Shown: positions 864 to 63,640 of the stretch, piece by piece
How the letters are laid out: every line of letters begins with the position of its first letter
Position numbering within the stretch: the stretch's first letter is position 1
DNA from: Candidatus Bathyarchaeota archaeon
GTDB lineage: Archaea > Thermoproteota > Bathyarchaeia > Bathyarchaeales > Bathycorpusculaceae
Assembly: GCA_963702095.1 (NCBI GenBank)
Contig: OY969706.1
Location: forward strand, 2,272,001 to 2,336,000
Direction: 5' to 3'
DNA length: 64,000 bases
The notes under the pieces: generated by a model
What the model saw: the letters and a program-made list of their open reading frames with translations, nothing else
The model's database searches: none
Told to the model about the DNA's origin: nothing
Made by a program: the position numbers and the translations under genes

Positions 864-1150
864 TGTTTGCCGCTCCCCAACGCCATCCCTCCCCCCATAA
901 AATCGGTATTGTCTCTTTATGTGGGTGTGACGGTTTGCAGGGTGCCACAAGACGGCAACGGTGGGCGGCTGTTTTTTTTTGGTTGCAACGGTTTTTGGCG
1001 TCTGCTTCGGTGTGGCAATTATGTTTTTCTCTACACTCGGTGCAGAGGCGAGCGCGTACCGTTTGCTTTTTTTCTCACAAGAATAGCAATGGACAACGGA
1101 ATGCAATCGGCATTAGCATGACCCATTTCAGGGTTTCATCTCGCACAATA
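864..1150. repeat. Dispersed repeat family B, copy 1 (intergenic, two hairpins)
   Basis: Collinear blocks shared with 63345-63640 (tctctttatgtgggtgtg, ggtgccacaagac, gcgtctg.ttcggtgtgg, tgcagaggc, aatgcaa.cgg) and, inverted, with 60280-60312. Confidence 0.75.
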
Positions 1151-6913: not shown

Positions 6914-7303
6914 CTGTTGAATCTTCCTTTTTCTTTCGGAGAAGTGTAGAGTTTCAAAGGAGCATAAAAACTTTATCCACCAAAAAACGCGGGAGTGTAT
7001 TTTATGGTAACGTGGGCGTTTATAAAAGACCCTACGGCATTGAACTAAATACAGGTGAATCAAATTTTCTGGTTTTTCTAGTGCAAGAAGAAGACAGATG
7101 GCCCCTTACTCATCATCTTCTCAGAGGCTTGACAGGCGACCCTGTTTTTGGTTCTACAACGGAAAGGGATTGCTTGCTGGTTGTGGAGCAAACTACAAGC
7201 AGAACCGTGAGCTTTATAATTTTTTAAGGGCAAAAATCAAAACAAAACTTTTGATCCATTGATATAGCGCTTTGAGGTTAGAAGCAGCAAGTAACTGTTT
7301 AGG

Positions 7304-7412
7304 GGTTTGCTGGGGCTCTGGAACCCGAACTAAAGGAGAAAAGAATGGAAAATGCAACTAAACCATTCTCAACTACCCATGACCGATTAATGTTATCCAG
7401 AGCCCACTCAGC
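7304..7412. repeat. Repeat family A copy 1: ~105-nt hairpin element (candidate ncRNA or recombination site)
   Basis: ggtttgctggggctctgga...aaaggagaaaagaatggaaaatgcaactaaaccattc...tccagagcccactcagc; outer and inner inverted repeats. Confidence 0.92.
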
Positions 7413-7437
7413 CCACATCTTACCAATGCAATTTGAT

Positions 7438-7459
7438 TCCCAAAAAAGGGAAAAGGAAG
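7438..7459 (-). terminator. Pyrimidine/U-rich archaeal terminator after beta-propeller gene 1 (equivalent tracts follow all seven paralogs)
   Basis: Minus strand ttccttttcccttttttggga ~20 nt after the stop; similar at ~11236-11257, 15204-15228, 19520-19542, 24363-24385, 29602-29626, 33690-33713. Confidence 0.7.
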
Positions 7460-7477: not shown

Positions 7478-10147
7478 TTAAGGTCGTTTTTTGACTGACA
7501 TCAAGATAACTGCGCCGACGATGGAAATTGCTATAATTACGGCAACAGCAGAACCCAATATAGTCATAGTATTGTCGACCGCTTGTAACGGTTGTGTCGT
7601 TGGCGCTGGTGTCGCTGCTTCGCTAGCATGGAAATATGTCACGGCTGAAGATGGGTAATACGAGTTTGAACCACCAAAGGTAGCAATTATAGTGTAGTCT
7701 CCAGCTATATCGGGGGTCCATGTGAAGCCGTATGAGCCATAGGAGTTCGAAGTTGTTGTGCCAATCTCTCGGTAATTGTTGTTGGAGTCGACGACAGATA
7801 ATGTTACGGTTACACCTGTGGCGTCAGATGGTCGTGGTTGATCTTGGTAGGCGTATTCCATCCATTTGCTCTGGCTTTCTTCAGAAACACATGCTAGACC
7901 ATTTGGGAATTTCTTTGCAACCTCAGACTGTGTTGTACCCGCTGATATGTCTGTTACAGTGCCAGTGATAGTAATTGGTGTAGCAGTAGTCACTCCAACG
8001 TCTGGAACATCTACAGTCAATTTGCTGGGTCCCTTGGCAAAGGCATAAATCTGGTTGTCATAGCAGTTCAACGAGATCAAAGTGTTGTAAGCAATTGCAG
8101 TAGCGACAACATATGTTCCTAACTCTTTCCAGATTAGTGTACCATCTGTTAGGTTAATAGCTAACATCTGTGCACCATGGAACAGCGGTGGGTTGTATTC
8201 ATGTCCTATTGGAAGATATGCAACGTCATTGGTATAAGCTTGGCAACGGAATGTCCACAGTGGCCACATGCCATAGGGGCTTTCGATGCCTGGATCGCCG
8301 ATGAGTGTTGTTGTGTTGGTGTACCATAGTTGTTTGCCAGTCTTTGTTTCAATAGCCCATATGTCGCCGCCTAAACCGGCGATGATAATTTTGCCGTTAG
8401 CTCCAGAGTAGCCAGCTGTTCCACCTAACATTGAATAGGTGCTTGGTTCGCCATTACCGTAGGGGGTTTTAAGTGCTGTTTCCCATGCTTTGGCACCAGT
8501 TCGGCAGTCAATGCCTGTGCTTATCCAGTTTACGTGGTTAGTTATGGATACGATTCCGTCATCAACTATTATTGATGCTCTAGTGAATGGCAGTAGTGAT
8601 TTGCAGTCTGGGTAAGTCAAGTTTTTGGACCACAATGTAGTACCATCAGCGGCATCCATGGAAGCCATTACTAGGTAACCAGTTGATTGGTCGGAAGCGT
8701 GAATTAATCCCGAAGTTAGAATAACAGTGTTGCTGCATAACCGCGATACTGAAAGTGTTGGGGTAATGGTTACGTCATTGACTGTTAAAGGAATTGGTTT
8801 AGCCCACATTAATCCGTAGCCCGCATCAATAGCGTTGTTTGTGGTTGGATACCATAGCCAATCATTGACTAAAGCCTTTGAAAGGTTAAAGCAGCATAAG
8901 GCAGGTGTGGTAATGTTTATCACTTCTTTGACCTGTGGGATTTGGAAACCGACCATCGGTATCATTGGTGTTTGTTGATAGGTTCTGACTTGACCAATAG
9001 TGCGATTGATATAGTATCCGATTAAGTTACCAGTTGCATCGGTTGTTAAAGTCATTGAACTAGCATTGCATATGCTGCATACGTATTTTCCACTTAACGC
9101 AGAGTATAGGTTATATTGGGTTCCAAAGTTTTTGTAAACGATTCCTCCAGTTTCAGCTGCGGGAAGAGCACCAGTAGTTATAACGTACGGACCGACGACA
9201 CCATATGCGTTGACTGTTTTCCATTCGTTAGCCATGCCTGTGGCTAAAATTGAAGTCGTGTTGATAGTGTACAGCGTTTCACCTGTAGCAAGATCGGTGC
9301 AAATGATACCAGATGGGCAACCGTAGCTTTCAGGGTACCAGGTGGAGTACATTTTGTCAGCAATTATAACTGGCGCAAACTGTGGGGTATATTGTCTTGT
9401 TGACCAGTAATGTCCTGATTCTTCGTCGCCACCAGCTTCACCGCCGACTACACCGCCAGTACACCAGACTTTAGTCCAAATGACGTGACCAGAAAGTACT
9501 GAAGCAGTGTAGGGGTTGCATAAGCTTGTTGCATTGTAGTATCCCACTGATCCCCCGAGACCCCATGGACCCATGTACTTGTACCATTCCTGAACGTTCT
9601 GTGCTGAGACGGGTGCTTCCCAATATTCTGTTGGAAGTGGCGTTATTGGATATGCAGTTTGTGTGATGGGCTCTTCTTGTACAGTTAATGTAACGACTTC
9701 GCTTTGGCTTGGCATTTCTTTGAGACCTACAAATCCGTCACCGAGAAGCGCATTTCTAAGTGTGGTTTGTCCACCGTAGAAGAATTGAAAAGTCCAATTG
9801 CCTACTTGGTCAGGTACAAAGTTGAAGTATGATCCACCAGTTGTGTCGCCTGTTATTGGACCTCTTGTTTCTACATTACCGTCTGGGTCAGTGATTTTAA
9901 CTGTCATGTTTGTTACTGCTTCGCCGGATTGTATTGAAGTTGCTAGAAAGAAGTTGACGTTGACTGTTTGACCTACCCCAATTGGGTTAGGAGCTACGCT
10001 GATAAAAGCATACGTCGGAATTTCTGTTCCAGGAGCAAATGTTGTATCAGCTAATGCCGAAGACAGCAATGTTGAGCCAGCAATCAGAAGAATAAGCAGC
10101 GTTGCGATTGCACTTTTTATATTTCTTGCATCAATTTTAAATTTCAT
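7478..10147 (-). CDS. Secreted PQQ-binding-like beta-propeller repeat protein, paralog 1 (signal peptide, Ig-like ends, C-terminal TM + KKRP)
   Basis: 889 aa; N-terminal hydrophobic signal, APNPIGVGQ motif, A.D..TG...W repeats, YDNQIYAF, WTPDIAGDY, C-terminal TM. Confidence 0.85.
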   Translation of the reverse strand: MKFKIDARNIKSAIATLLILLIAGSTLLSSALADTTFAPGTEIPTYAFISVAPNPIGVGQTVNVNFFLATSIQSGEAVTNMTVKITDPDGNVETRGPITGDTTGGSYFNFVPDQVGNWTFQFFYGGQTTLRNALLGDGFVGLKEMPSQSEVVTLTVQEEPITQTAYPITPLPTEYWEAPVSAQNVQEWYKYMGPWGLGGSVGYYNATSLCNPYTASVLSGHVIWTKVWCTGGVVGGEAGGDEESGHYWSTRQYTPQFAPVIIADKMYSTWYPESYGCPSGIICTDLATGETLYTINTTSILATGMANEWKTVNAYGVVGPYVITTGALPAAETGGIVYKNFGTQYNLYSALSGKYVCSICNASSMTLTTDATGNLIGYYINRTIGQVRTYQQTPMIPMVGFQIPQVKEVINITTPALCCFNLSKALVNDWLWYPTTNNAIDAGYGLMWAKPIPLTVNDVTITPTLSVSRLCSNTVILTSGLIHASDQSTGYLVMASMDAADGTTLWSKNLTYPDCKSLLPFTRASIIVDDGIVSITNHVNWISTGIDCRTGAKAWETALKTPYGNGEPSTYSMLGGTAGYSGANGKIIIAGLGGDIWAIETKTGKQLWYTNTTTLIGDPGIESPYGMWPLWTFRCQAYTNDVAYLPIGHEYNPPLFHGAQMLAINLTDGTLIWKELGTYVVATAIAYNTLISLNCYDNQIYAFAKGPSKLTVDVPDVGVTTATPITITGTVTDISAGTTQSEVAKKFPNGLACVSEESQSKWMEYAYQDQPRPSDATGVTVTLSVVDSNNNYREIGTTTSNSYGSYGFTWTPDIAGDYTIIATFGGSNSYYPSSAVTYFHASEAATPAPTTQPLQAVDNTMTILGSAVAVIIAISIVGAVILMSVKKRP

Positions 10148-10202
10148 TTTTATCTCCTTTTTGTGCGGGTAGGGTAAACTCCCAAACTCTATTTATAACA
10201 AA

Positions 10203-10284: not shown

Positions 10285-11085
10285 TTAAATACTTTTGGAA
10301 TTTTGCCACAATAGCTCAAAATATTCTTGGAATACACCCACAACCGTAGTGTTATCCATAAGTAAACTCGCAGTCATAGGCTTAGAAATCATAGGTTCGA
10401 TAGTAACGAAAACCTTTTTCTTATCCCATAGCGATAACGTAGCTTGAGGGATCGCCTCAGTTCTTTTAATCGCAATATTACCGTAATCCCCAAAAAAACC
10501 GGATAACTCCACGGGATTTTTGTTTTTTTCAGTAAAAATGATAAGCCGTATTTTTATGCCCCTAAGTAATAGTTTTTTAAACATCACTACAAAAAAATCC
10601 TTTCGTAATTCTACATCGCGGTAAAAAAGAATACCATCATGGCAACTCTTGCTTAAGTCAACCAATTCGTTCAATTTTCGGAATGTGAATTTTTCACCGG
10701 GGACAAGAGCGAATTGACATGATTTCCCCTCGTTAGATCCATTGCTTCTCTGTTTGTATCTTTCCAATAATTTCTTCGCGTTGATCTCATTTTCTTCATA
10801 ATCGCTCTTCCTATGTTCAAGTAACAGTCTTAAACCTTCATTCATCGGCAACGCTTTAAAGGTGGTTGGATTAGTCAGAAACTGTTCGACCAAATTGAGT
10901 TTGAATAGTTCTTTTACCGCTCGATAGACATTGGCTCTATCAATCTTTGAGATTGATGCGAGAGTGTTTACCGTTGCGTTCTCCAATTCTAAAATAGCAA
11001 GGTAAATTTTAGCTTGACTTTTAGTCAGCCCGAGACTCGTCAAAGTCTGAATTTCAGACTCCAGATTAACATTTATTGATGTCAT
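10285..11085 (-). CDS. TrmB-family transcriptional regulator
   Basis: LTSLGLTKSQAKIYLAIL...IDRANVYRAVKEL...PTTFKALP; C-terminal effector domain ending FELLW. Confidence 0.88.
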   Translation of the reverse strand: MTSINVNLESEIQTLTSLGLTKSQAKIYLAILELENATVNTLASISKIDRANVYRAVKELFKLNLVEQFLTNPTTFKALPMNEGLRLLLEHRKSDYEENEINAKKLLERYKQRSNGSNEGKSCQFALVPGEKFTFRKLNELVDLSKSCHDGILFYRDVELRKDFFVVMFKKLLLRGIKIRLIIFTEKNKNPVELSGFFGDYGNIAIKRTEAIPQATLSLWDKKKVFVTIEPMISKPMTASLLMDNTTVVGVFQEYFELLWQNSKSI

Positions 11086-11110
11086 TCTTAAGCGCTCTTA
11101 TTAGATTAGA

Positions 11111-11215
11111 GGTTTGCTGGGGCTCTGGAACCCGATTAAGGAAGAGAAGAATGGAAAATGCAAATAACCATTCTCAACTACCCGCGATTATTAGATTTTC
11201 CAGAGCCCGCTCAGC
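11111..11215. repeat. Repeat family A copy 2
   Basis: ggtttgctggggctctggaacccgattaaggaagagaagaatggaaaatgcaaataaccattc...tccagagcccgctcagc. Confidence 0.92.
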
Positions 11216-11276
11216 CACTACTTAGCTGTTCTAATCCCAAAAAAAGGGAAAGGGAAATTATTTCAATCAATTGTTT

Positions 11277-13889
11277 TTATGGTCGTTTCCTAAGCGCTAG
11301 TATACCGAAGATTGCGACTGCGATTATGACCGCTATGCCTGTTCCTACGATAGTCATTGTATAGTCAGCTTGCACTGGTATCTGTGGCTGTGCCGTAGGT
11401 TCTGGTGCATTATCTACTTGTATGGCAGATTCGGCGTATGAGCCGTAATAGGATTTAGAGCCTGCAAATGTAGCAAGGATAGTGTATTTACCGGGAACCT
11501 CCGGAGTAAACACATAGCTATAACTGCCGCTTGTATCACTGGTAGTTCTACCGACTTCATAGAAGTTGTTGTTTGGATCAATCACTGACAAAACCACCTC
11601 AACACCTGTAGCGTTGGTGGGCTGTACCTGATCCATCCACAGATAAGCCATCCATGCACTTTGGGATTCGTCAGAAACTGCGGGAACACCATTGGGGAAA
11701 CGCGTTGTCAGTTCAGTATTTTGTGAATAACCTGGACTATTATCTGTAACTGTGCCTTCCACAATTACGCTGTTGCCATTCACTGAAGTCTTCGGTGATG
11801 CTGTGACAGTTGTTGAGCTTTGACCTTTACCGAAAGCGTAAAGTTGCATATCATAGCTGTTGAGGCCTACAAGGATGCCGTCTGAGATGATGATGTTGCT
11901 TGGGGTAATATAAGCATCAGCCCAGAAAGGCACACTAAATATTTCAGTACCATCAGTCGCATTGATGCAGCGAATCATTGCTCCGCGCCAGAAAGGCTGG
12001 TTTGGCGAGTGCTCACTTGAGGTAAAGTATAGTTTTCCGTCAGACATGCACCCGTATATTAGCGGGTAATTCGGGTAGGGAGATTCTGTTCCAATGGTGT
12101 CAGCAACGTATTTCCAAAGAACATTACCGTTAGTGACGTTGTAAGCGTTTACTTCACCGCCCATGCCATAGGTTATCAACATACCGTCGTAGATTATGCT
12201 ACTCATAGTGAAGAAGTTCCATTCAGTCTCTGGGTCGCTATGCCACACCTGTTGTCCAGTCGTCAAGTCATAAGCATACCATGTCCTTAAGTCATCGTTT
12301 TTAAAGAAGAAGCGGTTGTATTCCGGATACACTTTATCGAAGGTCATAGATAAGTTGCCGGGGGATGTTGATGGCGGCGTAAAAGTAATATTACTCAGCA
12401 GAGTGCCTTCAGAACCTGTCTTCAGGCTTACAGTCCAAAGTTGACCCGTTGTAGTCACTGAAGTCCCTAAGCCTACAGGATTTGAATCTGAAGAGCTTAT
12501 GCCTGTTGTTCCACCGATGATAGATTCGCCTTCACGAATTGACATTATCGAACCAGCTAAGTCAGGCACTGAGACGTTCAATGAGTAACCGTTGGCGCCG
12601 TTTACAGTTGCACTGCCTCTTGCTAAACCGAATTCGCTATCAGCAGCTACAAAGTTGCCAAATGGATCACTTGCACCGAATAGTACAGCTCTTGAAGTAT
12701 TCCAAATTTGCAAATAGCGGTTGGGGTTTGTAGCGTTTCCAATATTAACAATGTTGTAACGCAATACGCTTCCGTCTTTGCCCGTAACAGTTGTGCCGCT
12801 GCCAGCGTTAGTTATGTTGAAAATCGCCTTGTTCGAGTATGGATCATATGCAGTCCATGTGGTGCCGCTGATTGACCATAGATATGGGAAGACTCCGTGC
12901 ACGTTCATAGAATGGTAGTTCATCAACGAAGCAAAGTTTAAGGTTCCTGATCGCCAGAGGTCTGTTAGCTCTTCGCCTGAATACAAATCGTAGACGTAAA
13001 CGCCTGCATTTTGGTCCCATGTGTTGATGTTTCTTTGGCAGTAAATTTTTCCGTCGACTATCACTGAGGGCTGACTAAATGCTTGGTATTCTTTGCCGAT
13101 CCAAAAGCCTTGTGCTGATTCAAAGCGAGCGTCGACAGCGCCACCGACCCAAAACGGCGTTGCCCATAGTACGTGTCCACTCTCTGGAGCTGAACCGTAG
13201 GCATAGTTAGCTGTTCCACCGTAAGAGCCTGTTGGGTAATACTGAGCACCAGAAGAGGTTCCCAGCCAGTTGCCTAAAATTGGCCACCAATCTCTGCTCA
13301 TACTGTTTACTGGACGAGCCCAATACTCAGTTGGAAGCGGAGATTCAACCCACGTCTCAATCGGATCAGCCTGAACTGTCAAAACGAACGGCTCACTAGT
13401 ACTATCCCCGAAGGTATCGTTGAGATAGGCTTGGTTATATTGTGACTGCGTTGTTCCTGGGCGTAACCCTAATCCCAAATCCCAAGTTATGGTCTCTTTG
13501 GAGTGGTGAGCTACAAATGTGTAGTTACCCTCTTGATCAGGCACATAAACAAAGGAGGCTGCGCCCGCTGCATCAGACATTATAGTGCGTGTTTCGTTAG
13601 TGTTGTCAGGCTTGGTGATTGTTAAGTCGAAAGTCCATCTGCCGCCATATCCATAATTATCAGCTGTCGGCGGCCACCAGTTAAGCCAGACAACGACAAG
13701 CGCGTCTTGACTTACACCAATAGGATTCGGTGACACTGTGACGTAGGTAAAGGTATCATAATTCCATGCGGGAGTGTGCGATTGAGCCATTGGCAAAGCA
13801 ATAAGTGAGATTACAGCGGTTACCATTAGAATCAAGGCCAGCATCGTAAGTTCTGTCTTACCAAGTTTTATTTGTCTAATTTCTTTCAT
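11277..13889 (-). CDS. PQQ-like beta-propeller surface protein, paralog 2
   Basis: 870 aa, same architecture as paralog 1; ends TM + RKRP. Confidence 0.85.
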   Translation of the reverse strand: MKEIRQIKLGKTELTMLALILMVTAVISLIALPMAQSHTPAWNYDTFTYVTVSPNPIGVSQDALVVVWLNWWPPTADNYGYGGRWTFDLTITKPDNTNETRTIMSDAAGAASFVYVPDQEGNYTFVAHHSKETITWDLGLGLRPGTTQSQYNQAYLNDTFGDSTSEPFVLTVQADPIETWVESPLPTEYWARPVNSMSRDWWPILGNWLGTSSGAQYYPTGSYGGTANYAYGSAPESGHVLWATPFWVGGAVDARFESAQGFWIGKEYQAFSQPSVIVDGKIYCQRNINTWDQNAGVYVYDLYSGEELTDLWRSGTLNFASLMNYHSMNVHGVFPYLWSISGTTWTAYDPYSNKAIFNITNAGSGTTVTGKDGSVLRYNIVNIGNATNPNRYLQIWNTSRAVLFGASDPFGNFVAADSEFGLARGSATVNGANGYSLNVSVPDLAGSIMSIREGESIIGGTTGISSSDSNPVGLGTSVTTTGQLWTVSLKTGSEGTLLSNITFTPPSTSPGNLSMTFDKVYPEYNRFFFKNDDLRTWYAYDLTTGQQVWHSDPETEWNFFTMSSIIYDGMLITYGMGGEVNAYNVTNGNVLWKYVADTIGTESPYPNYPLIYGCMSDGKLYFTSSEHSPNQPFWRGAMIRCINATDGTEIFSVPFWADAYITPSNIIISDGILVGLNSYDMQLYAFGKGQSSTTVTASPKTSVNGNSVIVEGTVTDNSPGYSQNTELTTRFPNGVPAVSDESQSAWMAYLWMDQVQPTNATGVEVVLSVIDPNNNFYEVGRTTSDTSGSYSYVFTPEVPGKYTILATFAGSKSYYGSYAESAIQVDNAPEPTAQPQIPVQADYTMTIVGTGIAVIIAVAIFGILALRKRP

Positions 13890-14033: not shown

Positions 14034-14711
14034 ATGTTCGATATCGAGCGAATAGTAATAGAGATGGTTTCAGCAATAGCCTGCTTCATCCTCGTAAAAT
14101 TCATGATAAAACCGTTTCAACTGACAGGAGAAACTAGACATCTTTTTTTAGCTCTCGGATTTGGTTTACTTGGCGCATCCTACGCGTTTTCAGCCATATC
14201 GTTCGCGCTTGAAGCACTCCAAACGTGGTCACCTGTTTTCATTAGCTGGTTCTGGGTGGAGCTTCTGGTGAGAGCATTCGCCTTCCTATTTCTCGCAATT
14301 ACATATTACTTTTCAAGATTGGAGAAAAAAACTAAGCCATTATGGAATACAACCCTTGTTATTTTAGTGGCTCTTTTGGCAGTTTTAATCCTATCGGCGA
14401 TTATTTTTCCACAGTTGCCTTGGTCAAGTTATATAACCATCAATATTTATGTGCGGTTTTTTTCTTTGATATGCCTTCTTTACATTTCGATTCAATCTTT
14501 GAGAAGCCATATTGAGCAGGCAGAGCCAAAAACACTTATGGTTCCATTAGGGTACATTCTACTTGGAATAGGAACCTATTCATCGTTGATCGGTGCCGTT
14601 GACTTAACGCTTTTTCCGCTTTTTGGAGCGTTAGTGCTACGCCTAGCTGGTCTCGCGGTCTTGCTTTTCGTTTGCTATAAAACATTCTATAGTAAAGACA
14701 AGAGGGTATAA
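14034..14711 (+). CDS. ~7-TM integral membrane protein (putative sensor), paralog of 18398-19072
   Basis: Alternating hydrophobic helices; shared KP(F/Y).LT, LGFG.LG.S, FAF.F.A.TY.F, PLG, GAL.LR..GL motifs. Confidence 0.8.
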   Translation: MFDIERIVIEMVSAIACFILVKFMIKPFQLTGETRHLFLALGFGLLGASYAFSAISFALEALQTWSPVFISWFWVELLVRAFAFLFLAITYYFSRLEKKTKPLWNTTLVILVALLAVLILSAIIFPQLPWSSYITINIYVRFFSLICLLYISIQSLRSHIEQAEPKTLMVPLGYILLGIGTYSSLIGAVDLTLFPLFGALVLRLAGLAVLLFVCYKTFYSKDKRV

Positions 14712-15073: not shown

Positions 15074-15178
15074 GGTTTGCTGGGGCTCTGGAACCCGAAC
15101 TAAAGGAGAAAAGAACGGAAAATGCAACTAAACCATTCTCAACCGCGACTACGTTAATTTTATCTAGAGCTTCTCAGC
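15074..15178. repeat. Repeat family A copy 3
   Basis: Same element with variants gaacgg and tctagagcttctcagc. Confidence 0.92.
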
Positions 15179-15244: not shown

Positions 15245-17860
15245 TTATGGCCGTTTTCTAATCAAGAGTACGCCGACTATCGCTATCGAGATGATTATGG
15301 CGATTACACCGATTGCTAAGTACGTTAGAATTTCACTAGTTGTTGCTAAGTCTGTTTGAACCTGCTGTGTAGGTGCTGGTGTGGCTGCTTCACTTGCATA
15401 GAATGCTGTTTGCGCTGACGCTGGATAGTACGAGTTGGAGCCGGCAAAGCTTGCGATTATCTGGTAGTTGCCTGAAATGTCGGGTGTCCATGTAAAGCCG
15501 AAGGTGCCGCTCGCAGTACTCGTTGTTTGTCCAATTTCGCGGTAGTTGCCGTTTGAGTCGATAACACTAATCGTAATGGGCACACCAGTGATGTTGTAAG
15601 GCATATCTTGCTGCTGGTAGACTGCTTCCATGAAAGCGCTTTGGCTTTCGTCAGAGACACAGGGCAATCCGTAGGGGTATTTGGATGATACTAGAGTTGA
15701 TTCTGTGCCTGGCGAGAAGTCCAAGATTGAGCCTGAGATGGTAATCGGTGTAGAGGTAGTTACTCCGACTGCTGGGGCCTCAACTGTGATACCGCTTGCA
15801 CCTTTGCCGAAGCAGTAAAGCATGTTGTCGTAGGCATTTAGGGATACAAGTTTGCTGTATGCGATGGCTGTGGAGGTGACGCTTGTGTCCAATGTGCGCC
15901 AGATGAGCGAGCCGTCCGTTAAGTTGAGTGCATAGAGTTGGCATCCGTGGAATAGCGGTGGGTTGTATTCATGACCGCCTGTGATGTATGCAACATTATT
16001 GGATTCACAACCGCTTGCAAAACTCCAAAGTGGCCAGATGTTGTAGGGTGTCTCAATTCCAGATGGACCTTGGAGTTTTGTTGTGTTGGAGTACCAGTTT
16101 ATCTCGCCAGTTTTACTATTAACGCTCCAGATGTCTCCGCCTAAACTGTTGACTATGAACGCGTTGTTTGCCTGATACAATTTCATACCAAAGACGTCGT
16201 ATATGTTTGGTTCTGCGCCGTTATCGCCTGTCAGCTGTACTTCCCATGCTTTACTGCAATCCTTTGTGTTTATACCAACGAAATAGCCGTTGACGTTGTT
16301 GCAGATACCGTAGATGCCGTCGCCTGCTACGGTTCCAGTTCTACTCCAAGGCAGCATTGCATTTATCGTCGGATATGTCAAGTTTGCAGAGCCAACTACG
16401 GCACCGGTGTCTTGATTCATTGTTACAATGCAAGTGTAGCCTTTTTGTCCCGTGCTCGGGTTTCCTGCGGTCAAAACCAATTCATTGCCAGTTATTGCAC
16501 TCAATCCAAGGGCGGGGTCAATGGAGACACCGCTGATATTGTTTGGCACTGGCACATCCCACATATAACCTGAGCTAAAGGCGCGGACAGTATTTTTAGA
16601 TACGCTAAACTGACCCGCTGTAAATCCTGCAGCCATGGTCAGGTTAACGCAGGTTAAGTGTGGACCAGTGTTTGTTACAATAGCGTCTGTTGATTGTGTC
16701 GGATGTACGATTTGTGTACCTGCTGTGTTGTTGATAAAGTAGCCGATCAAGTTACCGTTTTCGTCGTTCCGGATTTTTAAATCAGAACCGTTTACTATGC
16801 TGAGAACGTAACTTCCTGTGACAGCGTCGAAGAGGTTCCATTGTGTTCCTGTATTGCGAGGGATGGAACCGCCAGTTTCGCCTGCAGCACAAGTGCCTGT
16901 GGTCCATAGGAATGGTCCGAGAACACCGTACTCGTTCAGGTTTTGATGGAAAGTAACCATGCCGCACCGCAATGTACTCGTAGTGTTGAGCAGCCAAAGA
17001 GTCTCACCAGTATACACGTCGATGGCTATGATGCCTTGTTTACCGGCAGTGCCTGTAGTTGAAGTAAACCATGTGGAGTATAGTATGCCGTTGATGATGA
17101 CAGGAGCGTATCTGGGCTGATACTGGAATGTTGACCAGTAGTGAGACGTAACTTCGTTTCCGCCAAGTTCTCCGCCTGCTACACCGCCGCCGCACCAAGC
17201 TTTCTTCCACAGAACGTGGCCGGATAATACGTCTTCGGTGTATGGATTGTAGTTGCTAGTACTGTTGTATGCGCCTGTGATAGTGAAGGAACTAGCGCCG
17301 GCATATCCATACCAAGCGCCAGTAATCGAGTACCAGTTTTGCGAGTTTTGCGCGGATACCGGTGTTTCCCAATAAGTAGCTGGGAGTGGTGTGAAGGGGT
17401 ATGAGCGTCCAATGTTAGGTTCCTCTTGGACAATAAGCGTTGTTGGTTTACTTGTACTAGCATCAGCGATCATTCCGTTTGTCAATGTTTGTCCTTTGAA
17501 GTAGAATTGTATTGTGTAGTTGCCGACCTTGTCTGGGGCAAAGTACGCACAGGTGCCTTCAGTCGTGTCGGATGTATATGGTCCTAAGGTGGTATTAGTT
17601 CCATCGGGTTTAACTATGTCTACGTAGAAGGGTGTCGCTACTTCACCAGTTGGATATGGAGTTGCAAGGAATATGTTGAGGGTGACTTGTTGACCGACTC
17701 CAGCAGGGTTAGGAAAGACGTTAAGGTAAGCAAAGGTTGGCATGTGGGTCCCTGTGGGGAAAGTGCTATCTCCGTAGGCTGGATGCACTGCGATAACCAT
17801 TGAAAGCAACATTATTATAGCGAGAAAAGCAATCGTAATTTCTTTTTTACGTATTTTCAT
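15245..17860 (-). CDS. PQQ-like beta-propeller surface protein, paralog 3
   Basis: 871 aa; GHEYNPPLFHG motif shared with paralogs 1 and 4; ends TM + RKRP. Confidence 0.85.
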   Translation of the reverse strand: MKIRKKEITIAFLAIIMLLSMVIAVHPAYGDSTFPTGTHMPTFAYLNVFPNPAGVGQQVTLNIFLATPYPTGEVATPFYVDIVKPDGTNTTLGPYTSDTTEGTCAYFAPDKVGNYTIQFYFKGQTLTNGMIADASTSKPTTLIVQEEPNIGRSYPFTPLPATYWETPVSAQNSQNWYSITGAWYGYAGASSFTITGAYNSTSNYNPYTEDVLSGHVLWKKAWCGGGVAGGELGGNEVTSHYWSTFQYQPRYAPVIINGILYSTWFTSTTGTAGKQGIIAIDVYTGETLWLLNTTSTLRCGMVTFHQNLNEYGVLGPFLWTTGTCAAGETGGSIPRNTGTQWNLFDAVTGSYVLSIVNGSDLKIRNDENGNLIGYFINNTAGTQIVHPTQSTDAIVTNTGPHLTCVNLTMAAGFTAGQFSVSKNTVRAFSSGYMWDVPVPNNISGVSIDPALGLSAITGNELVLTAGNPSTGQKGYTCIVTMNQDTGAVVGSANLTYPTINAMLPWSRTGTVAGDGIYGICNNVNGYFVGINTKDCSKAWEVQLTGDNGAEPNIYDVFGMKLYQANNAFIVNSLGGDIWSVNSKTGEINWYSNTTKLQGPSGIETPYNIWPLWSFASGCESNNVAYITGGHEYNPPLFHGCQLYALNLTDGSLIWRTLDTSVTSTAIAYSKLVSLNAYDNMLYCFGKGASGITVEAPAVGVTTSTPITISGSILDFSPGTESTLVSSKYPYGLPCVSDESQSAFMEAVYQQQDMPYNITGVPITISVIDSNGNYREIGQTTSTASGTFGFTWTPDISGNYQIIASFAGSNSYYPASAQTAFYASEAATPAPTQQVQTDLATTSEILTYLAIGVIAIIISIAIVGVLLIRKRP

Positions 17861-18397: not shown

Positions 18398-19072
18398 ATG
18401 TACCCTGACAACAATTATGCTACTTACCGGATGATAGCGGAGTTTGCAGCAGCGATTATCTGCATTGTTCTCGTATGGTTCATGTCAAAACCATACAAGT
18501 TGACTAGGAAGGGAAGTTATCTGGGTTTACCACTTGGATTTGGGTTTCTAGGGTTATCATTTCTTCTAGGAGGCATCTCTATTTCAAAAATATTGCCTTC
18601 TAATGCTAATGATATATTTTGGTTACCATGTTTAACTAAAACATTCGCATTCATTTTCATCGCGGCAACATATTTTTTTGCAACCAGAAATTCAGAACTA
18701 AACCGCAAAGTCGGAGACATTACTATTGGGGTCTTAATAGCAGCTCTCGTTGCTTCAATCCTACTTGCATTTGCCGCTCCACAACTTGCTTTAGACTACA
18801 CAGCGGCGAATCAGTACCTAAGAATCTTTAACGTATTTTGTTTAATCTACGTAGTTGTCTTCACACTTCAGAGGCATATTAAGAATCTTGATCCGACAAC
18901 CATTTGGATTCCTTTGGGTTTTATTTTTCTTGCCGTAAGTCAGTATTCACTACTCTTTTGGTATATTGATTATAGTTTTTCTGCATTCGTAGGAGCTCTT
19001 ATCTTGCGGTTTATTGGTTTAGGGATCTTTCTTTTCGTTGCTTATCACAGCTTCTACAAAGAGGCCGGATAA
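18398..19072 (+). CDS. ~7-TM integral membrane protein (putative sensor)
   Basis: Paralog of 14034-14711. Confidence 0.8.
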   Translation: MYPDNNYATYRMIAEFAAAIICIVLVWFMSKPYKLTRKGSYLGLPLGFGFLGLSFLLGGISISKILPSNANDIFWLPCLTKTFAFIFIAATYFFATRNSELNRKVGDITIGVLIAALVASILLAFAAPQLALDYTAANQYLRIFNVFCLIYVVVFTLQRHIKNLDPTTIWIPLGFIFLAVSQYSLLFWYIDYSFSAFVGALILRFIGLGIFLFVAYHSFYKEAG

Positions 19073-19346: not shown

Positions 19347-19381
19347 TAGTGAAAAAGGTCTTTGCACTGTGCTCCCGAAAT

Positions 19382-19492
19382 GGTTTGCTGGGGCTCTGGA
19401 ACCCGTTTAAGGAAGAAAAGAATGGAAAATGCAACTAAACCATCCTTCAACTACCCTACTACTAGGTTAACTTGATCCAGAGCCCACTCAGC
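19382..19492. repeat. Repeat family A copy 4
   Basis: Same element; 3' two-thirds nearly identical to copy 5. Confidence 0.92.
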
Positions 19493-19561
19493 CCATTTTT
19501 TATCCATTACATTTATTGTTCCCAAAAAAAGGGAAAGGGAAAGTTGTTTGTTACCTGTTTT

Positions 19562-22343
19562 TTATGGTCGTTTTCTAAGCAGAAGCAGTGTGGCTATTGC
19601 AATTGCAATTATGATAGCGACAGCAGTAACTGCCATGTACATCAATAGGTCACTGGTTGTAGCTAAGCCAGTTTGAGGCGGCTGTGTTGGCGCTGCTGTT
19701 GCTGCTTCACTTGCATAGAGTGCTGTTGAAGCCGAAGCTGGATAATACGAGTTGGAGCCTGAGAAGCTTGCGTAGATTTTATAGTTTCCAATAATGTCTG
19801 GTGTCCATGTATAGCTGAAAGTACCGTCAGCATCGCTTGTAGTTGTGCCAATCTCGCGGTAGTTGCCATTAGAGTCAACAACAGCTAACGTGATTGGAAC
19901 TCCAATAGTATTCGATGGTAACGGTTGTTGCTGGTAGACATACTCCATCCATTTGCTTTGGCTTTCATCTGAAACACATGGCACGCCATTGGGGAATCTT
20001 AATGCGACTTCGTTTTGCTTTGTCATTGTAATGTCAGGTGAAGTAATTGCTCTTGTGCCAGGCGAAATATCCATTATTGTACCTCTTATAGTCAACGGTG
20101 TTGCAGTTGTTAAGCCGACATCAGGGGCTGTAACGGTCATAGTGCATGGACCCTTGCCCCAAGCGTATATCTGGTTGTCATAAGCGTTCATTGACAGCAC
20201 AATGTTGTAAGCGACTGCGGTAGACCTAATGTACATGCCTAATTCGCTCCAAACTAACGAGCCATCAGTCATGTTGAGTGCTATCATCTGTGAGCCATGG
20301 AATAGCGGTGGGTTATACTCGTGACCAACGGTGAGGTACGCCACATTAGTCGTGTAGCCAGGTGAGCTGAAAACCCACAGTGGCCAAACGTCATAGGGCG
20401 TTTCAATGCCTGGGTCACCGATCAGTGTAGTTGTGTTCGTGTACCAGAGTTCAGCGCCTGTATGAGAGTCAAAGCACCATACATCTCCTCCTAAGCCGTA
20501 CCAGAGTAATTTACCGTTTACGAATTGGTTGCTGATTCCAAAGTTGTCGTAGACGTTTGGTGTTCCGTCTCCGTAAGGTGTCTCAAGTGTTGTGGTCCAT
20601 AGTTTATCTCCGGTTCTTGTACTGTATGCTGCCATTTCCCAATTAACTAGGTTGACAGTTACGAATTGTCCATCTCCGAATGCGCGGCTTGTTCTGGTGA
20701 AGGGCAGAAGTTCTGTTGATCCGCCTGCATATGTATAGTTCTTGCACCATAACTCGGCGCCAGTGTTCAAGTCCATTGCACAGTAAATTAGCCAGCCAGG
20801 TACTTCGTCACCGCCTCCTTGCATGTGGATGAATCCAGCGCTAAGCACCAATTCGTTGCCAGTTATCGAACTCAGCGAGAGAGAGAGCCTTGGAGTAGTT
20901 GGAGATGTAGATATCGGTGTGCCATCATCAGTTGTAGTTGGTACGTCTACGGTCCACATGACTCCGTCTTGCCAGTTGTATGCTCTGTTTAGGGTTGGTC
21001 CCCATCCAAAGGCTGCGGCGCATGCCAAGAGCCATGGTTAGGTTAACGCATGTTAAGTGCGGTCCAGTGGTGTTCACAAGGACTTGTTGAATTCCTGTGC
21101 CGCCGCCTGAACCTGCAGCTGCGGATGTTCCTGGATAAGGATAGGTAGGTTCGTTTATGCCTGCGGTATTGTTAATGTAGTAGCCCATCAAGTTTCCGTT
21201 GTCGTCTTCTCTGAGCGTCACTGAGGAACCGTTGACGATGCTGCATATGTATTTTCCATCCCAGCCTGAATAGAGGTTCCACTGCGTTCCACGGTTATTG
21301 TATACTACTCCGCCTGTGTCTGCTGCGGGAAGCGTTCCAGTCGTCCAAATATAGGGACCAACAGCACCGTACTGATTAGCCATGTGGAATTTAGTGACCA
21401 TTCCGCATTTCAAGGCGTTTGTTGTGTTTATTGTCCAAAGTGTTGCGCCAGTGTATAAGTCTGAGCATATGATACCGTGAGCTAAGTTTGTGGCTTCTGG
21501 GTATGATGTTGAGTACATTCTGCCGTTTATTATGACTGGTGCATACTGAGGCTGGTACTGCCTAGTTGACCAGTAGCTGCCTGAGTCTTCTGATCCGCCG
21601 CTTGTTCCAACGCTTTCACCGCCAGCTACACCACCTGAAAGCCACTCTTTTGTCCAAAGAACGTGACCTGAATAGACAGAATCAGTGTAGGGGTTGTATC
21701 GTGTGGTAGCATTGTATGCGCCAGTTTGTGCGAAAGTGATTGAGCCAAGGCGAAGCCAGTCTCCTGTAACCTTAGACCATTCCTGCACGTTCTCTGCGCT
21801 GACGGGGGTTTGCCACCAATCAGTTGGAAGTGGAGTAATCGGATAGGCAGTGCGCTCTAGCGGTTCCTGTTGAACGGTCAGAACGTAAGGTTTGCTTACG
21901 CTAGGCATTTCATAGAGACTACCATAGCCTCCCTCTGTAATGTTGCGTCCAGTTAATTGTTGTCCGCCATAGTAGAATGTGAATGTGTAGTTGCCGACTT
22001 TATCTGGGACAAAGTTGAAGAATGTTCCGCCTGTGGTGTCTCCAGTGTAGGGTCCGAAGGTTTTTGGGGTGCCATCTGGGTCGACCATTTTAACGGTCAT
22101 GTTAGTTGGGCGTTCACTGGTTTCTAGCGCTGATGATACGAAGAAGTTGACGTTGACTGTTTGTCCGACACCCACTGGGTTTGGAGCTACGTTGATGAAA
22201 GCATATGTTGGGACTTGATAGTTTTCGGGGAATAAGACTTGTGCGAATGTGCTTGAGGTTAATGCCATAGAAATTGTCAAAGAAGCTATTAGAAATGTTG
22301 CTAGCAATGTAATTATTTTATTTTTATTGAATTTTGTTTGCAT
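19562..22343 (-). CDS. PQQ-like beta-propeller surface protein, paralog 4 (one apparent frameshift near 21020)
   Basis: ORFs 20928-22343 and 19562-21028 are the N- and C-halves, collinear with paralogs 1 and 3. Confidence 0.8.
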
Positions 22344-23040: not shown

Positions 23041-23265
23041 TATCGAATAGCCATAAACAGGCAATCACAGGTAGCTTAGCACTTATTCGAATTATTGGGT
23101 ACACCATACTCCAAGTTTCTTAATTTAAATCTTGTTGAAAGTGCAACTTACAACGGTTGAAAGGTTGAAGAAGACCAATCGCAAATAGATCCCTGAAGCG
23201 TTTGATAATCCGTCACATAAGGCAATGACAAAACTTAAAAATAATGAAAAACAAAAAGCTTGCAC

Positions 23266-24066
23266 ATGTTCCAACATGAAGAAGCCCTCCAAATACTTGT
23301 TGACTTCGGACTTACCCCTCTGCAATCAAAAATTTACATTTGCCTTATTACAGGCGGTTCAAATGGAATCGGAGTAAGAAATATTTCCGATATTTCGAGC
23401 GTGTCCCGAGAAGACGTTTACAGAGTTTTGGCAACACTCGAAAAAAAAGGTCTAGTTGAAAAGATAATTGCACATCCAACCAAATATAAACCGCTTCCAT
23501 TTGAAGACGGCGTTTACTTGCTTATTAAAAAAGAATCAGAGAAACTCCATGTGAAAGAAAAGAAGGCTAAATTGGTTCTTCAAAACATATCAATTCCAGA
23601 TGCCGACCCGATTGAAGAAGAATCGGCTTTCATAGTTGGGTCTGAATTGTCCTTATTACTAAAAAGGCTAAAAGATAAAATCGCCAATACCGAGAGAACA
23701 ATAGACATTATCTATTACAAGCCATTAAAAGTTATCTTATTTCATACGATTGATGAACTCCTCCAAGCATTAGAAAAAGGCGTAAAAATTCGAGTAATAG
23801 GCAGAGAAAACATCAATGAACCATTAAACGAAAACCTAAAGAAATTGAAGAAAAAAAACTCTTTTGAACTAAAAATAATAAACCAAGAAATCCCTGTCGG
23901 TCTATCTATTTTTGATGACAAAGAAGTAATACTTCGTACCGGCAAGAGTATCGTTCCAGTATTGTGGACAAATAACGAAAATATTGTGAAACTAACTTCA
24001 ATCTATTACGATAGTATGTGGAGTAACGGTGAAAAGCAAGAGATAATACTAGGGGATCAAGCATAA
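23266..24066 (+). CDS. TrmB-family transcriptional regulator
   Basis: FGLTPLQSKIY...VSREDVYRVLATLEKKGLVEK...PTKYKPLP; IFDDKEV; YYDSMW. Confidence 0.88.
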   Translation: MFQHEEALQILVDFGLTPLQSKIYICLITGGSNGIGVRNISDISSVSREDVYRVLATLEKKGLVEKIIAHPTKYKPLPFEDGVYLLIKKESEKLHVKEKKAKLVLQNISIPDADPIEEESAFIVGSELSLLLKRLKDKIANTERTIDIIYYKPLKVILFHTIDELLQALEKGVKIRVIGRENINEPLNENLKKLKKKNSFELKIINQEIPVGLSIFDDKEVILRTGKSIVPVLWTNNENIVKLTSIYYDSMWSNGEKQEIILGDQA

Positions 24067-24223
24067 AAACCGGTTGCCTGCTTCACCCAAACCACCTTAT
24101 GCCTTCTTAAGTTAACATGCCCCCTGAAGAAAAGACGACAAAAAATCGAGTTAGCTCTCAAGATGCCACTAAACAAGACAACACTACTAGAAAGAAATAA
24201 AAATTCTGTTTCGGTATGTTGGA

Positions 24224-24334
24224 GGTTTGCTGGGGCTCTGGAACCCGAACTAAAGGAGAAAGAATGGAAAATGCAACTAAACCATTCTTCAACTACCCTA
24301 CTACTAGGTTAACTTTATCCAGAGCCCACTCAGC
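24224..24334. repeat. Repeat family A copy 5
   Basis: Same element. Confidence 0.92.
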
Positions 24335-24411
24335 CCATTTTTTTATCCATTGCATTTATTGTTCCCAAAAAAAGGGAAAGGGAAATTTGTTTTGTGTTTG
24401 TGTGGTGGTGT

Positions 24412-27145: not shown

Positions 27146-27380
27146 TATTTTTTCTCCTTTTGCGTGGCTGAATGGTGATCTAGAGCATTAATAAGAGTTT
27201 TCGATACAAATGGAATAAACAGCCAGTTTGCATCCCAATATGGCGATAATATTTAAAATCAGCGGCTGATAATGGTAAAAAAGCCGATTTCATAAAAAAT
27301 GGGCTACAACATCAAAAAGCATCATTAGTGGTGAACTTTAAATTGTTGTACATCCAACATAACCGTGAAAAGGGAACAGT

Positions 27381-28385: not shown

Positions 28386-28450
28386 AAAAAGGGCGTAAAC
28401 GGCATAAAAAAGCCAAGAATTAAATAATCAGAGTTTAATCTGTAGACCCT

Positions 28451-29455: not shown

Positions 29456-29480
29456 ATTTCCTGAAACTCTTGTCTTTTAG

Positions 29481-29580
29481 GGTTTGCTGGGGCTCTGGGA
29501 CAATTAAGGAGAAAAGAATGGAAAATGCACTAACCATTCCGGACCGAAACCGCGTAATTTAAATCCAGAGCCCATTCAGC
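29481..29580. repeat. Repeat family A copy 6
   Basis: ggtttgctggggctctggg...aaggagaaaagaatggaaaatgcactaaccattc...tccagagcccattcagc. Confidence 0.92.
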
Positions 29581-29633
29581 CCATTTTTATGCATTTTTTC
29601 TTCCAAAAAAAAGGAAGAGGGGAAATTGTTTTT

Positions 29634-33550: not shown

Positions 33551-33563
33551 GACTTGGCTTTGT

Positions 33564-33669
33564 GGTTTGCTGGGGCTCTGGACCGCAACTAAAGGAGAAA
33601 AGAATGGAAAATGCAACTAAACCATTCTTCAACCGCGATCTGTTATTTCTATTCCAGAGCCCTCTCAGC
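33564..33669. repeat. Repeat family A copy 7
   Basis: ggtttgctggggctctggaccgcaactaaaggagaaaagaatgg...tccagagccctctcagc. Confidence 0.92.
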
Positions 33670-33729
33670 CCAATTTTGCACTTTTTGCTTCCAAAAAAAG
33701 GAAGAAGGGAAATTGTTTGTTGTTGAAGT

Positions 33730-60019: not shown

Positions 60020-60068
60020 GACTCTCAAGATTTGAAGAGCGATTTGAAGTTTTATTTATTAAAATTAG

Positions 60069-60133
60069 GGTTTGCTGGGGAACTGAAACCGAACTAGAGG
60101 AAGAAAAGAATGGAAAATGCAACTAAACCATTT
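60069..60133. repeat. Repeat family A copy 8 (orphan, partial or diverged)
   Basis: ggtttgctggggaactgaaaccgaactagaggaagaaaagaatggaaaatgcaactaaaccatt; lacks the tccagagccc arm. Confidence 0.85.
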
Positions 60134-60279
60134 TTATCTACTGCGATTTCCAAGTTAAGGTTTAGTCGTTAAAATTGCTGTTTTTTATTCCCCTTCTTGT
60201 TTGCGAAAATTGTTTTTAGGGGTGGGTTGTTTTGGGGTTGGTTGGGAAGTGAGAGGTGGCTGATGCCTTTTGAAGGGCT

Positions 60280-63345: not shown

Positions 63346-63640
63346 TTTGCTGCCTTGCCTACCGCTTCCTCCATTTTGTATTGAGCTATTTCTCTTTATG
63401 TGGGTGTGGCGTTTTATGGGGTGCCACAAGACTGCAAGCGGATGCGGTTGCTTTTTGGGGAATCATTGCGTTTCCGCGTCTGTTTCGGTGTGGGATATGC
63501 TTTTTCTTCCACACGCCATACATGGCTCCATGCAGAGGCCGCCGGGATGTGTGTGAATACATGTATCGATTGTCTTTTTGTCTTTAAATACAGTGAACAG
63601 CGATGTCAGCGCAATGCAAGCGGGCACTAACATGAAGTAC
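63345..63640. repeat. Dispersed repeat family B, copy 2
   Basis: Collinear similarity to 864-1120. Confidence 0.75.

Follow-up and report, generated by a model that had tools for sequence, protein, structure and literature searches.

What is a repeat that lies behind the genes of one protein family and carries, in inverted orientation, a likeness of the translation start of those same genes? The question arises in a 64,000-nucleotide (nt) stretch of the genome of a Candidatus Bathyarchaeota archaeon (contig OY969706.1, positions 2,272,001 to 2,336,000; called the window below), in which large genes for beta-propeller proteins are followed by copies of a short element. In the original prediction a 25-mer was described as antisense to the ribosome-binding site (RBS) and start region of the propeller genes. 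The 25-mer was confirmed on the plus strand at 7323-7347, and the antisense relation is borne out, with the family leaders as the top matches and a likeness that extends through ATG-CAA. Bases 7323-7348 are part of a 113-nt structured repeat at 7303-7415 (the element). In the reading direction of the adjacent gene the two ends of the element form a bulge-helix-bulge motif, which is the substrate type of the tRNA-splicing endonuclease. Because the family leaders rank at the top and share ATG-CAA, the middle of the element is judged by sequence comparison to be an opposite-strand copy, in the same 5'-3' sense, of the family's 5' untranslated region (UTR) and start. The reading put forward here, tentatively and at somewhat less than an even chance, is that an antisense RNA of about 90-100 nt may be excised from the element, would probably be circularised, and would mask the ribosome-binding sites of the family.

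Copies and distribution of the element

Two further window copies of the 25-mer with at most two mismatches were found at 15093 and 33582, against 0 expected (100 shuffles). The structured repeat has eight alignable copies in the window, 6-7 of which are grouped per family by a repeat search:

7303..7415, minus strand: element copy 1, which holds the 25-mer (alignment and fold)
11110..11218, minus strand: element copy 2, behind gene 11277-13889, with bulges of 3/3 and a weak outer helix
15073..15181, minus strand: element copy 3, behind gene 15245-17860, with one bulge of just 2 nt
19381..19495, minus strand: element copy 4, behind fragmented gene 19562-22343, with a canonical motif and outer helix TGG/CCA
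24223..24337, minus strand: element copy 5, behind gene 24412-27146, with a canonical motif
29480..29583, minus strand: element copy 6, with a canonical motif, behind gene 29634-32311, which is broken close to its 3' end
33563..33672, minus strand: element copy 7, behind fragmented gene 33730-36413, with a canonical motif
60068..60169, strand unassigned: solitary degenerate copy with no adjoining propeller gene, in which the 5' part is kept and the motif lost (4/9 inner pairs)

The large genes of the window, among them the one behind which copy 1 lies, encode proteins of 720-890 amino acids (aa) with immunoglobulin (Ig)-like domains and a C-terminal hydrophobic tail. Their beta-propeller match is weak (PQQ_2/BamB-like, E=2.5e-9 with Pfam), and the NCBIfam BamB models score far below cut-off.

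7478..10147, minus strand: propeller gene 1 (889 aa), with a PQQ_2/BamB-like beta-propeller, Ig-like domains and a C-terminal hydrophobic anchor

The window's own genome (G000) is a single contig of 2.94 Mb with 46.8% guanine plus cytosine, and contains 28 copies of the element by nhmmer and 30 by a covariance model. A family gene is convergent with the element in 20 of the 28 copies, and the stop of the nearest convergent open reading frame (ORF) is 51-99 nt from the element end in most of them; in other genomes a long convergent ORF ends 37-97 nt from the element in 23 of 28 loci. Within the genus, a search with a model built from 21 copies recovered the element from 21 of the 24 other genomes; among other genera of the order, 1 of 16 genomes had it. 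In an even draw across the class it was found in 10 of 151 genomes, G000 included (E<=1e-5), and the genomes bearing it were confined to two families, with 6 of 15 in one (f1) and 3 of 5 in the other (f7). The element was not found in the other 29 sampled families of the class, where stricter filters applied and 'not found' does not equal 'absent'. It occurs in two families within one Bathyarchaeia order. Exact matches to its first 18 bases come almost solely from Candidatus Bathyarchaeota/Bathyarchaeia, with a few bacterial chance matches. No Rfam 15 family reached the gathering score in the window, and five related loci gave one chance-level match (E<=1); ARAGORN called no tRNA in the window, and a crude scan of the genome found no CRISPR array as a source of the 5' motif.

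Bulge-helix-bulge motif and RNA strand

From the outside inwards, the motif has an outer helix (2-3 pairs), then a central 4-bp helix set between two bulges of 3 nt, one on each strand, and finally an inner helix of 9-10 bp; these sizes hardly differ between copies. In copy 1 the parts are arranged as follows, where SD stands for Shine-Dalgarno sequence:

7303..7415, minus strand: copy 1 in minus-sense layout, with a 5' part (outer helix, 4-bp helix, 3-nt bulge, 10-bp inner helix), a middle (variable hairpin, inner hairpin P2, anti-SD stretch) and a 3' part (inner helix, 4-bp helix, 3-nt bulge, outer helix)
7396..7415, minus strand: 5' half of the motif, with outer helix 7413-7415 (2 pairs), central helix 7409-7412, bulge 7406-7408 (AGU in RNA) and inner helix 7396-7405
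between 7407 and 7406, minus strand: predicted 5' cut, giving an excised RNA from 7406 down to 7307 (100 nt)
7342..7369, minus strand: inner hairpin P2, with stem 7342-7348/7363-7369 and a 14-nt loop at 7349-7362 that holds the (anti-)start codon
7303..7322, minus strand: 3' half of the motif, with inner helix 7313-7322, central helix 7309-7312, bulge 7306-7308 (AAA in RNA) and outer helix 7303-7305
between 7307 and 7306, minus strand: predicted 3' cut, its position inside the bulge taken from tRNA numbering

Motif geometry was scored on the 112 of 121 distinct copies in which both halves were located. In 111 of the 112 the 5'-side bulge (plus sense) reads TTT; 109 have a second bulge of precisely 3 nt, and 108-109 have GCTG/CAGC as their central helix. 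Covariation is seen in the outer helix (GGG/CCC in 42 copies, AGG/CCT in 9, TGG/CCA in 6, and also AAG/CTT, TAG/CTA and GGT/ACC), which has at least 3 pairs in 70 copies and 2 pairs in 30. The inner helix, with its 9-10 pairs, covaries as well.

To fix the canonical handedness of the motif, two tRNAs of this genome that contain introns, tRNA-Met and tRNA-Leu, served as controls. When these controls were scanned with the bulge placed 3' of the 4-bp helix on both strands, the exact ARAGORN introns were returned (25 nt in tRNA-Met, 40 nt in tRNA-Leu) and positions 32-35 fell in the central helix; the mirror-handed scan of both tRNAs recovered neither intron. The canonical scan is passed by 91 of the 121 element copies in the minus sense versus 15 in the plus sense. 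Among 101 distinct copies, 73 A-C/C-A cells, which are G-U in the minus sense, were counted versus 40 plus-sense G-U cells, a count that is suggestive only. Handedness and wobble together suggest that the RNA strand is the minus strand, in the sense of the adjacent gene.

An RNA read from the plus strand, for example as the tail of the upstream regulator genes, is considered distinctly unlikely. The element would in that case be a start-region mimic or decoy that binds ribosomes or a repressor, a tiny ORF, or a translation-sensitive terminator that controls antisense transcription into the propeller gene. The plus strand does hold an SD, a spacer and an ATG like a genuine start, copy 3 pairs through G-U in the plus sense alone, and a co-directional ORF ends 14-158 nt upstream in 15 of the 28 copies of this genome. 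In all 8 copies without a convergent family gene a same-strand ORF lies within 600 nt downstream, several of these being the second repeat described below. T-runs of at least 4 nt occur within 25 nt past the closing stem (plus sense) in 74 of 120 copies; counted at 5 nt or more they show no real excess over a control flank (45 versus 35 of 120). No conserved promoter signal was found upstream in the plus sense, nor any conserved base until 3 nt before the element (120 copies). The bulge-helix-bulge takes a non-canonical mirror form in this sense, and the wobble counts lean to the other one. A small ORF from the conserved ATG was rejected, since the ATG is missing from 27 of 122 copies, the ORF has 9-14 codons in just 39 of 95, and frame-shifting indels of 1 nt are tolerated.

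Conservation of the fold

Every copy has a long closing stem and the inner hairpin P2, whose loop bears AAAATGCAA(C), together with an unpaired purine-rich stretch (A)AGGAGAAAAG between the closing stem and P2 and a variable stretch. The closing stem is nearly constant within one genome and varied across 22 genomes. In a covariation sample of 29 sequences from these 22 genomes, paired cells amounted to 92.5% versus 84.2% in shuffles, and two-sided changes were present at 11 of 21 pairs, which was matched by 4 of 500 shuffles. As a control, the 3' partners were slid by 1-3 columns, and 1-6 pairs with a two-sided change were obtained. Because of this pairing excess and the two-sided changes across 22 genomes, the fold of the element is seen to be under selection and not that of a decaying repeat. 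Conservation is uneven: the bulges, the central helix, the SD-like stretch and the loop are almost invariant, and the neighbouring stretch is variable and contains indels. The copy of the start region is the best conserved inner part of the element.

A third helix or pseudoknot between the SD-like stretch and the pyrimidine tail after the stem was examined and not adopted, with energies of -6.83 kcal/mol for a copy's own tail versus -6.93 kcal/mol for the tails of other copies and the own tail better in 49 of 101 cases; shuffled tails gave -5.61 kcal/mol, and own tails were somewhat better than these.

The same data bear on the view that the element is a passive DNA repeat. There would then be no RNA regulator: the 5' end of the gene would once have been duplicated in inverted orientation, and the remnant would have been kept leader-like through gene conversion and preserved because it insulates convergent genes as a hairpin or serves them as a back-up terminator, in the manner of repetitive extragenic palindromic (REP) sequences or miniature inverted-repeat transposable elements (MITEs). 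This is rather unlikely in our estimation. The genome does contain other interspersed repeats, one with more than 100 copies; the stem of the element has both wobble types; the element sits between convergent transcription units; and gene conversion could yield co-variation across genera without any RNA function. The element is also dispensable for a given gene, because at least 8 family loci without an intact element keep the terminator. A passive repeat does not account well for the very uneven conservation, for the compensatory changes that preserve two helices, for bulge sizes that never drift, or for a placement that is fixed relative to one gene family across two archaeal families. Local conversion between the two ends of a gene is opposed by the finding that an element and its own gene are no more alike than other pairs.

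Inversion of the DNA by inverted repeats flanking each gene, which had been raised as an alternative in the original prediction, found no support, as no flipped arrangement was present among 110 scorable motif occurrences at 115 loci. The 18-nt motif has the canonical arrangement in 88 of these occurrences and stands alone in the other 22, and no long ORF follows the archaeal motif-only occurrences.

Relation to the leaders of the propeller genes

Two regions of the window are compared here:

7323..7354, minus strand: copy of the family's translation-initiation region, with the SD-like GGAG at 7335-7338 and ATG-CA at 7352-7356 on the plus strand
10145..10170, minus strand: gene 1 leader with its SD and start codon, of which the element holds an inverted copy (sequence comparison)

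The minus-sense RNA of 7323..7354 is the complement of this region, that is, anti-SD and anti-AUG. All six leaders quoted in the original prediction were located on the minus strand upstream of propeller genes, and for gene 5 an SD-led ATG lies upstream of the TTG chosen by the ORF caller. One detail had to be corrected: the ATG at 7345-7347, which had been taken as the counterpart of the start codon, sits in the P2 stem, and the conserved counterpart is the ATG at 7352-7354 in the P2 loop.

The 26-mer was compared with the leaders of 2870 ORFs in the genome, 38 of which belong to the family. The best three local alignments, and 6 of the top 10, are with family genes, and family leaders are closer to the 26-mer than those of SD-led non-family genes (Mann-Whitney p=6e-4). 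Many family genes start with ...AGGAGAAAA..AAAA ATG CAA. For the gene at G000 2051702-2054272 (minus strand) the likeness of the leader extends over some 36 nt and takes in the stretch that forms the 5' arm of P2.

The strongest evidence for the target relation is the co-variation of elements with leaders in another archaeal family. In a genome of that family (G040) the elements read GAAGGTGAAAAA ATG AAA AAA or GAAGGAATGAA.., and the adjoining propeller leaders read the same; in G003 and G000 elements and leaders both read AGGAGAAAAGAAAA ATG CAA. Element-leader pairs from the same genome gave alignment scores of 22.9 and 22.8 and antisense duplexes of -17.1 and -18.0 kcal/mol, and pairs taken across genomes gave scores of 18.6 and 14.4 and duplexes of -12.5 and -10.5 kcal/mol (17 leaders, two of them with probably mis-called starts). 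The covariation of leader and element across genomes that had been proposed as a check is thus seen, same-genome duplexes being 5-7 kcal/mol beyond cross-genus ones. GGTG was found in just 1 of 29 other G040 ORFs, a small and crude sample, which hints that the GGTG variant may be a trait of the family and not the general SD of this genome.

Proposed mechanism and points against it

In the antisense reading, the element would be transcribed in the sense of the adjacent propeller gene (the minus strand in the window); transcription would get there either by reading through the oligo-T terminator or by starting at a weak promoter within the AT-rich spacer. Cutting by the endonuclease EndA is proposed because the ends of the element pair into the canonical archaeal bulge-helix-bulge motif; cuts in both bulges would free an RNA whose length is 63-109 nt depending on the copy, and 100 nt at copy 1, which RtcB may then circularise, by analogy with tRNA introns and precursor ribosomal RNAs (pre-rRNAs). 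The motif thereby offers a specific route by which the 3'-derived RNA of the original prediction, where no such route was named, could be set free. Two EndA-family genes (PF01974 matches over cut-off) and one RtcB gene (PF01139) are encoded in the genome. The excised RNA is predicted to show an anti-start codon in a hairpin loop and the SD complement just 3' of that hairpin, and would pair with the translation-initiation regions of propeller-family messenger RNAs (mRNAs) and lower their translation. Its action would be family-wide and in trans, not specific to one gene.

In a circular fold of copy 1 the P2 loop is predicted to be unpaired (probability 0.62-1.0). Because the anti-start codon lies in this open loop while the anti-SD core is mostly paired, the likeliest course would be a loop-first ('kissing') contact with AAAAUGCAA of the family mRNAs, which would then spread to the SD. 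The complement had been described at the outset as lying mostly in the unpaired part of the hairpin; this description fits the conserved start-codon counterpart in the P2 loop, and fits less well the anti-SD stretch, which is partly paired in the predicted fold of copy 1.

A series of observations weighs against this antisense reading, the main obstacle being the terminator that stands before the element:

7442..7447, minus strand: oligo-T tract, presumed terminator of propeller gene 1 (A-run on the plus strand, between the stop and the element)

A T-run of at least 6 lies between the gene stop and the element in 100 of 120 copies. The oligo-T tract is still present at at least 8 family loci of this genome that have no intact element, and because of this persistence it is regarded as the terminator of the gene, with the element just beyond it. 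The element is therefore not simply part of the main mRNA, and most gene transcripts should end before it. Unless transcription starts in the spacer, where no clear promoter was found (8 TATA-like matches near -25 in 120 copies), the model depends on read-through. As to the motif, many copies of this genome have an outer helix of just 2 pairs, the handedness rule rests on tRNA numbering and the two control tRNAs of this genome and is not spelled out in the available parts of the papers cited, and the wobble counts are not independent events. Copy 3 (15073) has three inner-helix pairs that are G-U solely in the plus sense. Loose bulge-helix-bulge patterns (inner helix at least 6 pairs, outer at least 3) occur in this genome about 1500 times for each strand and each handedness, and because this chance background is high the rarity of the motif in the genome is unusable as an argument; the weight lies on the conserved geometry. 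In the circular fold of copy 1 the partner of the anti-SD core is the variable stretch.

The pairing data add to these points. Pairing with family leaders had been expected to exceed that with generic SD-led genes; the expectation stands for similarity and for the comparison across genera, and fails for duplex energy, in which family leaders are no better than generic SD-led genes (p=0.38). Among 18 curated pairs, elements match their own genes no better than permuted ones (p=0.83 for similarity, 0.64 for energy). The observation that copies 2 and 4 deviate together with leaders 2 and 4 is therefore correct within the window and does not hold as a rule across these pairs, and a fold-back of read-through mRNA on its own RBS is not supported either, there being no gene-specific matching. 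A hand count of GGAG versus non-GGAG states, in which 15 of the 18 pairs were concordant (Fisher ~0.013), carries little weight beside the permutation test.

The motif might also be used in some other way, with the likeness to the start region incidental, which is judged quite improbable. EndA would then process or stabilise read-through transcripts, for example by leaving a cyclic-phosphate 3' end on the mRNA or by taking the hairpin out of the 5' UTR of a gene downstream, for which copy 2 would be the example, or the element would be a selfish intron-like sequence. Copy 2 ends 26 nt before a same-strand ORF of the TrmB family and may be compared with the 5'-UTR intron of Haloferax (PMC7714728, as excerpted), and the transposition of introns in Thermoproteales is discussed in the available excerpts of PMC4090602. 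The case is weakened by there being just one window copy with a same-strand gene downstream, and the fixed placement speaks against free transposition. The copy of the start region, moreover, is the best conserved part inside the element and co-varies with leaders between genera, which is hardly incidental.

A more specific form of the antisense reading is doubtful as a whole. Each paralog would carry, past its terminator, an intron-like cassette that gives rise, through EndA and RtcB, to a stable antisense circle of about 100 nt directed at the start region common to all the paralogs, and read-through from the strongest paralog would silence the others. With the same doubt attached, such cassettes would constitute a previously undescribed class of archaeal regulator, serving RNA-based mutual exclusion or dosage control. 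Mutual exclusion of surface proteins by RNA, as suggested in the original prediction, is pure conjecture.

Bathyarchaeia are among the most abundant uncultured archaea, and their gene regulation is almost uncharted. If the antisense reading is true, tRNA-splicing machinery would have been recruited to produce regulatory, probably circular, antisense RNAs, and for the first time a paralog family would be seen to bring along a translational silencer that acts on all its members, a possible means of switching or balancing surface proteins. For every copy the reading predicts exactly where the cuts should fall and which back-splice junction should result.

Partial copies, neighbouring genes and a second repeat

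A decayed copy of the element at G000 577375-577568 (minus strand) has lost part of its 5' arm. It starts 6 nt past tRNA-Gln(ttg), which has the same orientation and is separated from it by a short T-run. Only the first ~21 bases of the element are shared by the loci at G000 1213090 (plus strand), 2187426 (minus), 2175550 (minus), 234747 (plus) and 2907547 (minus), and likewise by two loci in other genomes (L193 and L200). These loci correspond to one half of the bulge-helix-bulge, after which the sequence diverges. One type closes with a hairpin and a T-run, and another continues into a stretch resembling a tRNA T-arm (GGGTTCAAATCCC), where ARAGORN calls no tRNA. At least 6 copies from other genomes have an extra conserved module directly before the element (plus sense, 50 nt upstream), composed of an A-run and then ..ATGAGGGATTGG.GACATCTTAGAGCATTTAGG, and its GACATC core recurs in the 'type C' loci that share the first 21 bases. 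ARAGORN also reports, at G000 1553484-1555302, a tRNA-Leu(aag) with a 1725-nt intron; the call is possibly false, or the intron may be long because it contains an insert.

Three propeller genes of the window (19562-22343, 33730-36413 and 29634-32311) are split into 2-3 overlapping ORFs, through frameshifts or decay, and retain intact elements behind them. Beside almost every propeller gene there is a regulator-like gene, of the TrmB family, of the Lrp/AsnC family, or encoding a protein of 224-225 aa without a Pfam match. In the window these genes are at 10285-11085, 14034-14711, 18398-19072, 23260-24066, 27381-29455, 32738-33550 and 36808-37623; they mostly diverge from the propeller gene and have their stop 14-160 nt before the next element. 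The TrmB-family ORF that follows the minus-sense end of copy 2 is 10285-11085 (gap 11085-11110), and copy 2, if co-transcribed with it, would be an intron-like insert in the 5' UTR of that gene.

A second interspersed repeat, with a core of ~145 nt, gives more than 100 blastn matches genome-wide (query G000 67497-67960). It is present in the window at about 912-1035 (minus strand) and at 63383-63601, has no Rfam match, and gives rise to spurious 'ORFs' whose peptides resemble one another. Four copies of the element that are divergent or solitary (G000 67406, 100573, 364243 and 514388) are followed by this repeat.

Comparison with known systems

According to the available parts of two papers, EndA cuts bulge-helix-bulge motifs and the product is circularised (PMC7714728, PMC12558985); in protein-gene transcripts such motifs are known so far, according to the available part of the former, only from an intron within one coding sequence and another within one 5' UTR (PMC7714728). 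The substrates for comparison are tRNA introns, the processing stems of 16S and 23S rRNA, the intron of cbf5 mRNA and the 5'-UTR intron of Haloferax HVO_1309. Like these, the element has two 3-nt bulges around a 4-bp helix and the handedness of tRNA introns in the same genome, and helices flank the motif, although the outer one is down to 2 pairs in many copies of this genome; EndA and RtcB are both encoded here, and the excised part would be expected to be circular, as those papers describe in the parts available (PMC7714728, PMC12558985). Unlike the known substrates, the element lies outside tRNA, rRNA and coding sequence, is present in about 10-30 copies per genome, and is only predicted to be cleaved. 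It also differs in standing just past the terminator of one paralog family, with an insert complementary to the RBS and start codon of that family.

Small RNAs (sRNAs) derived from bacterial 3' UTRs pair with ribosome-binding sites, and sRNA41 of Methanosarcina is reportedly an archaeal sRNA that masks an RBS. The predicted RNA would resemble such sRNAs in its origin at the 3' end of an mRNA locus, its exposed pyrimidine-rich anti-SD and its anti-AUG loop. Unlike the bacterial ones, it would be released by EndA and not by RNase E or a terminator, would probably be circular, and would have the paralogs of its own host gene as targets; in addition, the terminator precedes the element.

REP sequences with bacterial interspersed mosaic elements (BIMEs), and MITEs, are short palindromic multi-copy intergenic repeats. 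The element is likewise short, palindromic, multi-copy and intergenic, and is found at gene 3' ends or between convergent genes. It differs from them in that its position and orientation are fixed to one gene family and in its uneven conservation with compensatory changes, and it shows no sign of target-site duplications or scattered insertion. Some plant microRNA genes arose through inverted duplication of their target genes, and the pairing part of the element is similarly an inverted copy of target sequence; the element belongs to another domain of life, would be processed differently, and copies a translation start region.

Searches of the open-access literature and bioRxiv found no Bathyarchaeota small RNA or repeat element matching this one and no description of an intergenic or antisense archaeal bulge-helix-bulge repeat. 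For bulge-helix-bulge in Bathyarchaeota, the portions of text available in these sources deal with rRNA and tRNA processing and describe no such element, and for Bathyarchaeia with beta-propeller they gave one preprint, in which the topics are mentioned separately. EndA substrates and RBS-masking antisense RNAs are each already known. What these searches found described nowhere is the combination: a multi-copy, family-linked element past a terminator, bounded by a bulge-helix-bulge motif and holding an inverted copy of the family's start region that co-varies with the leaders.

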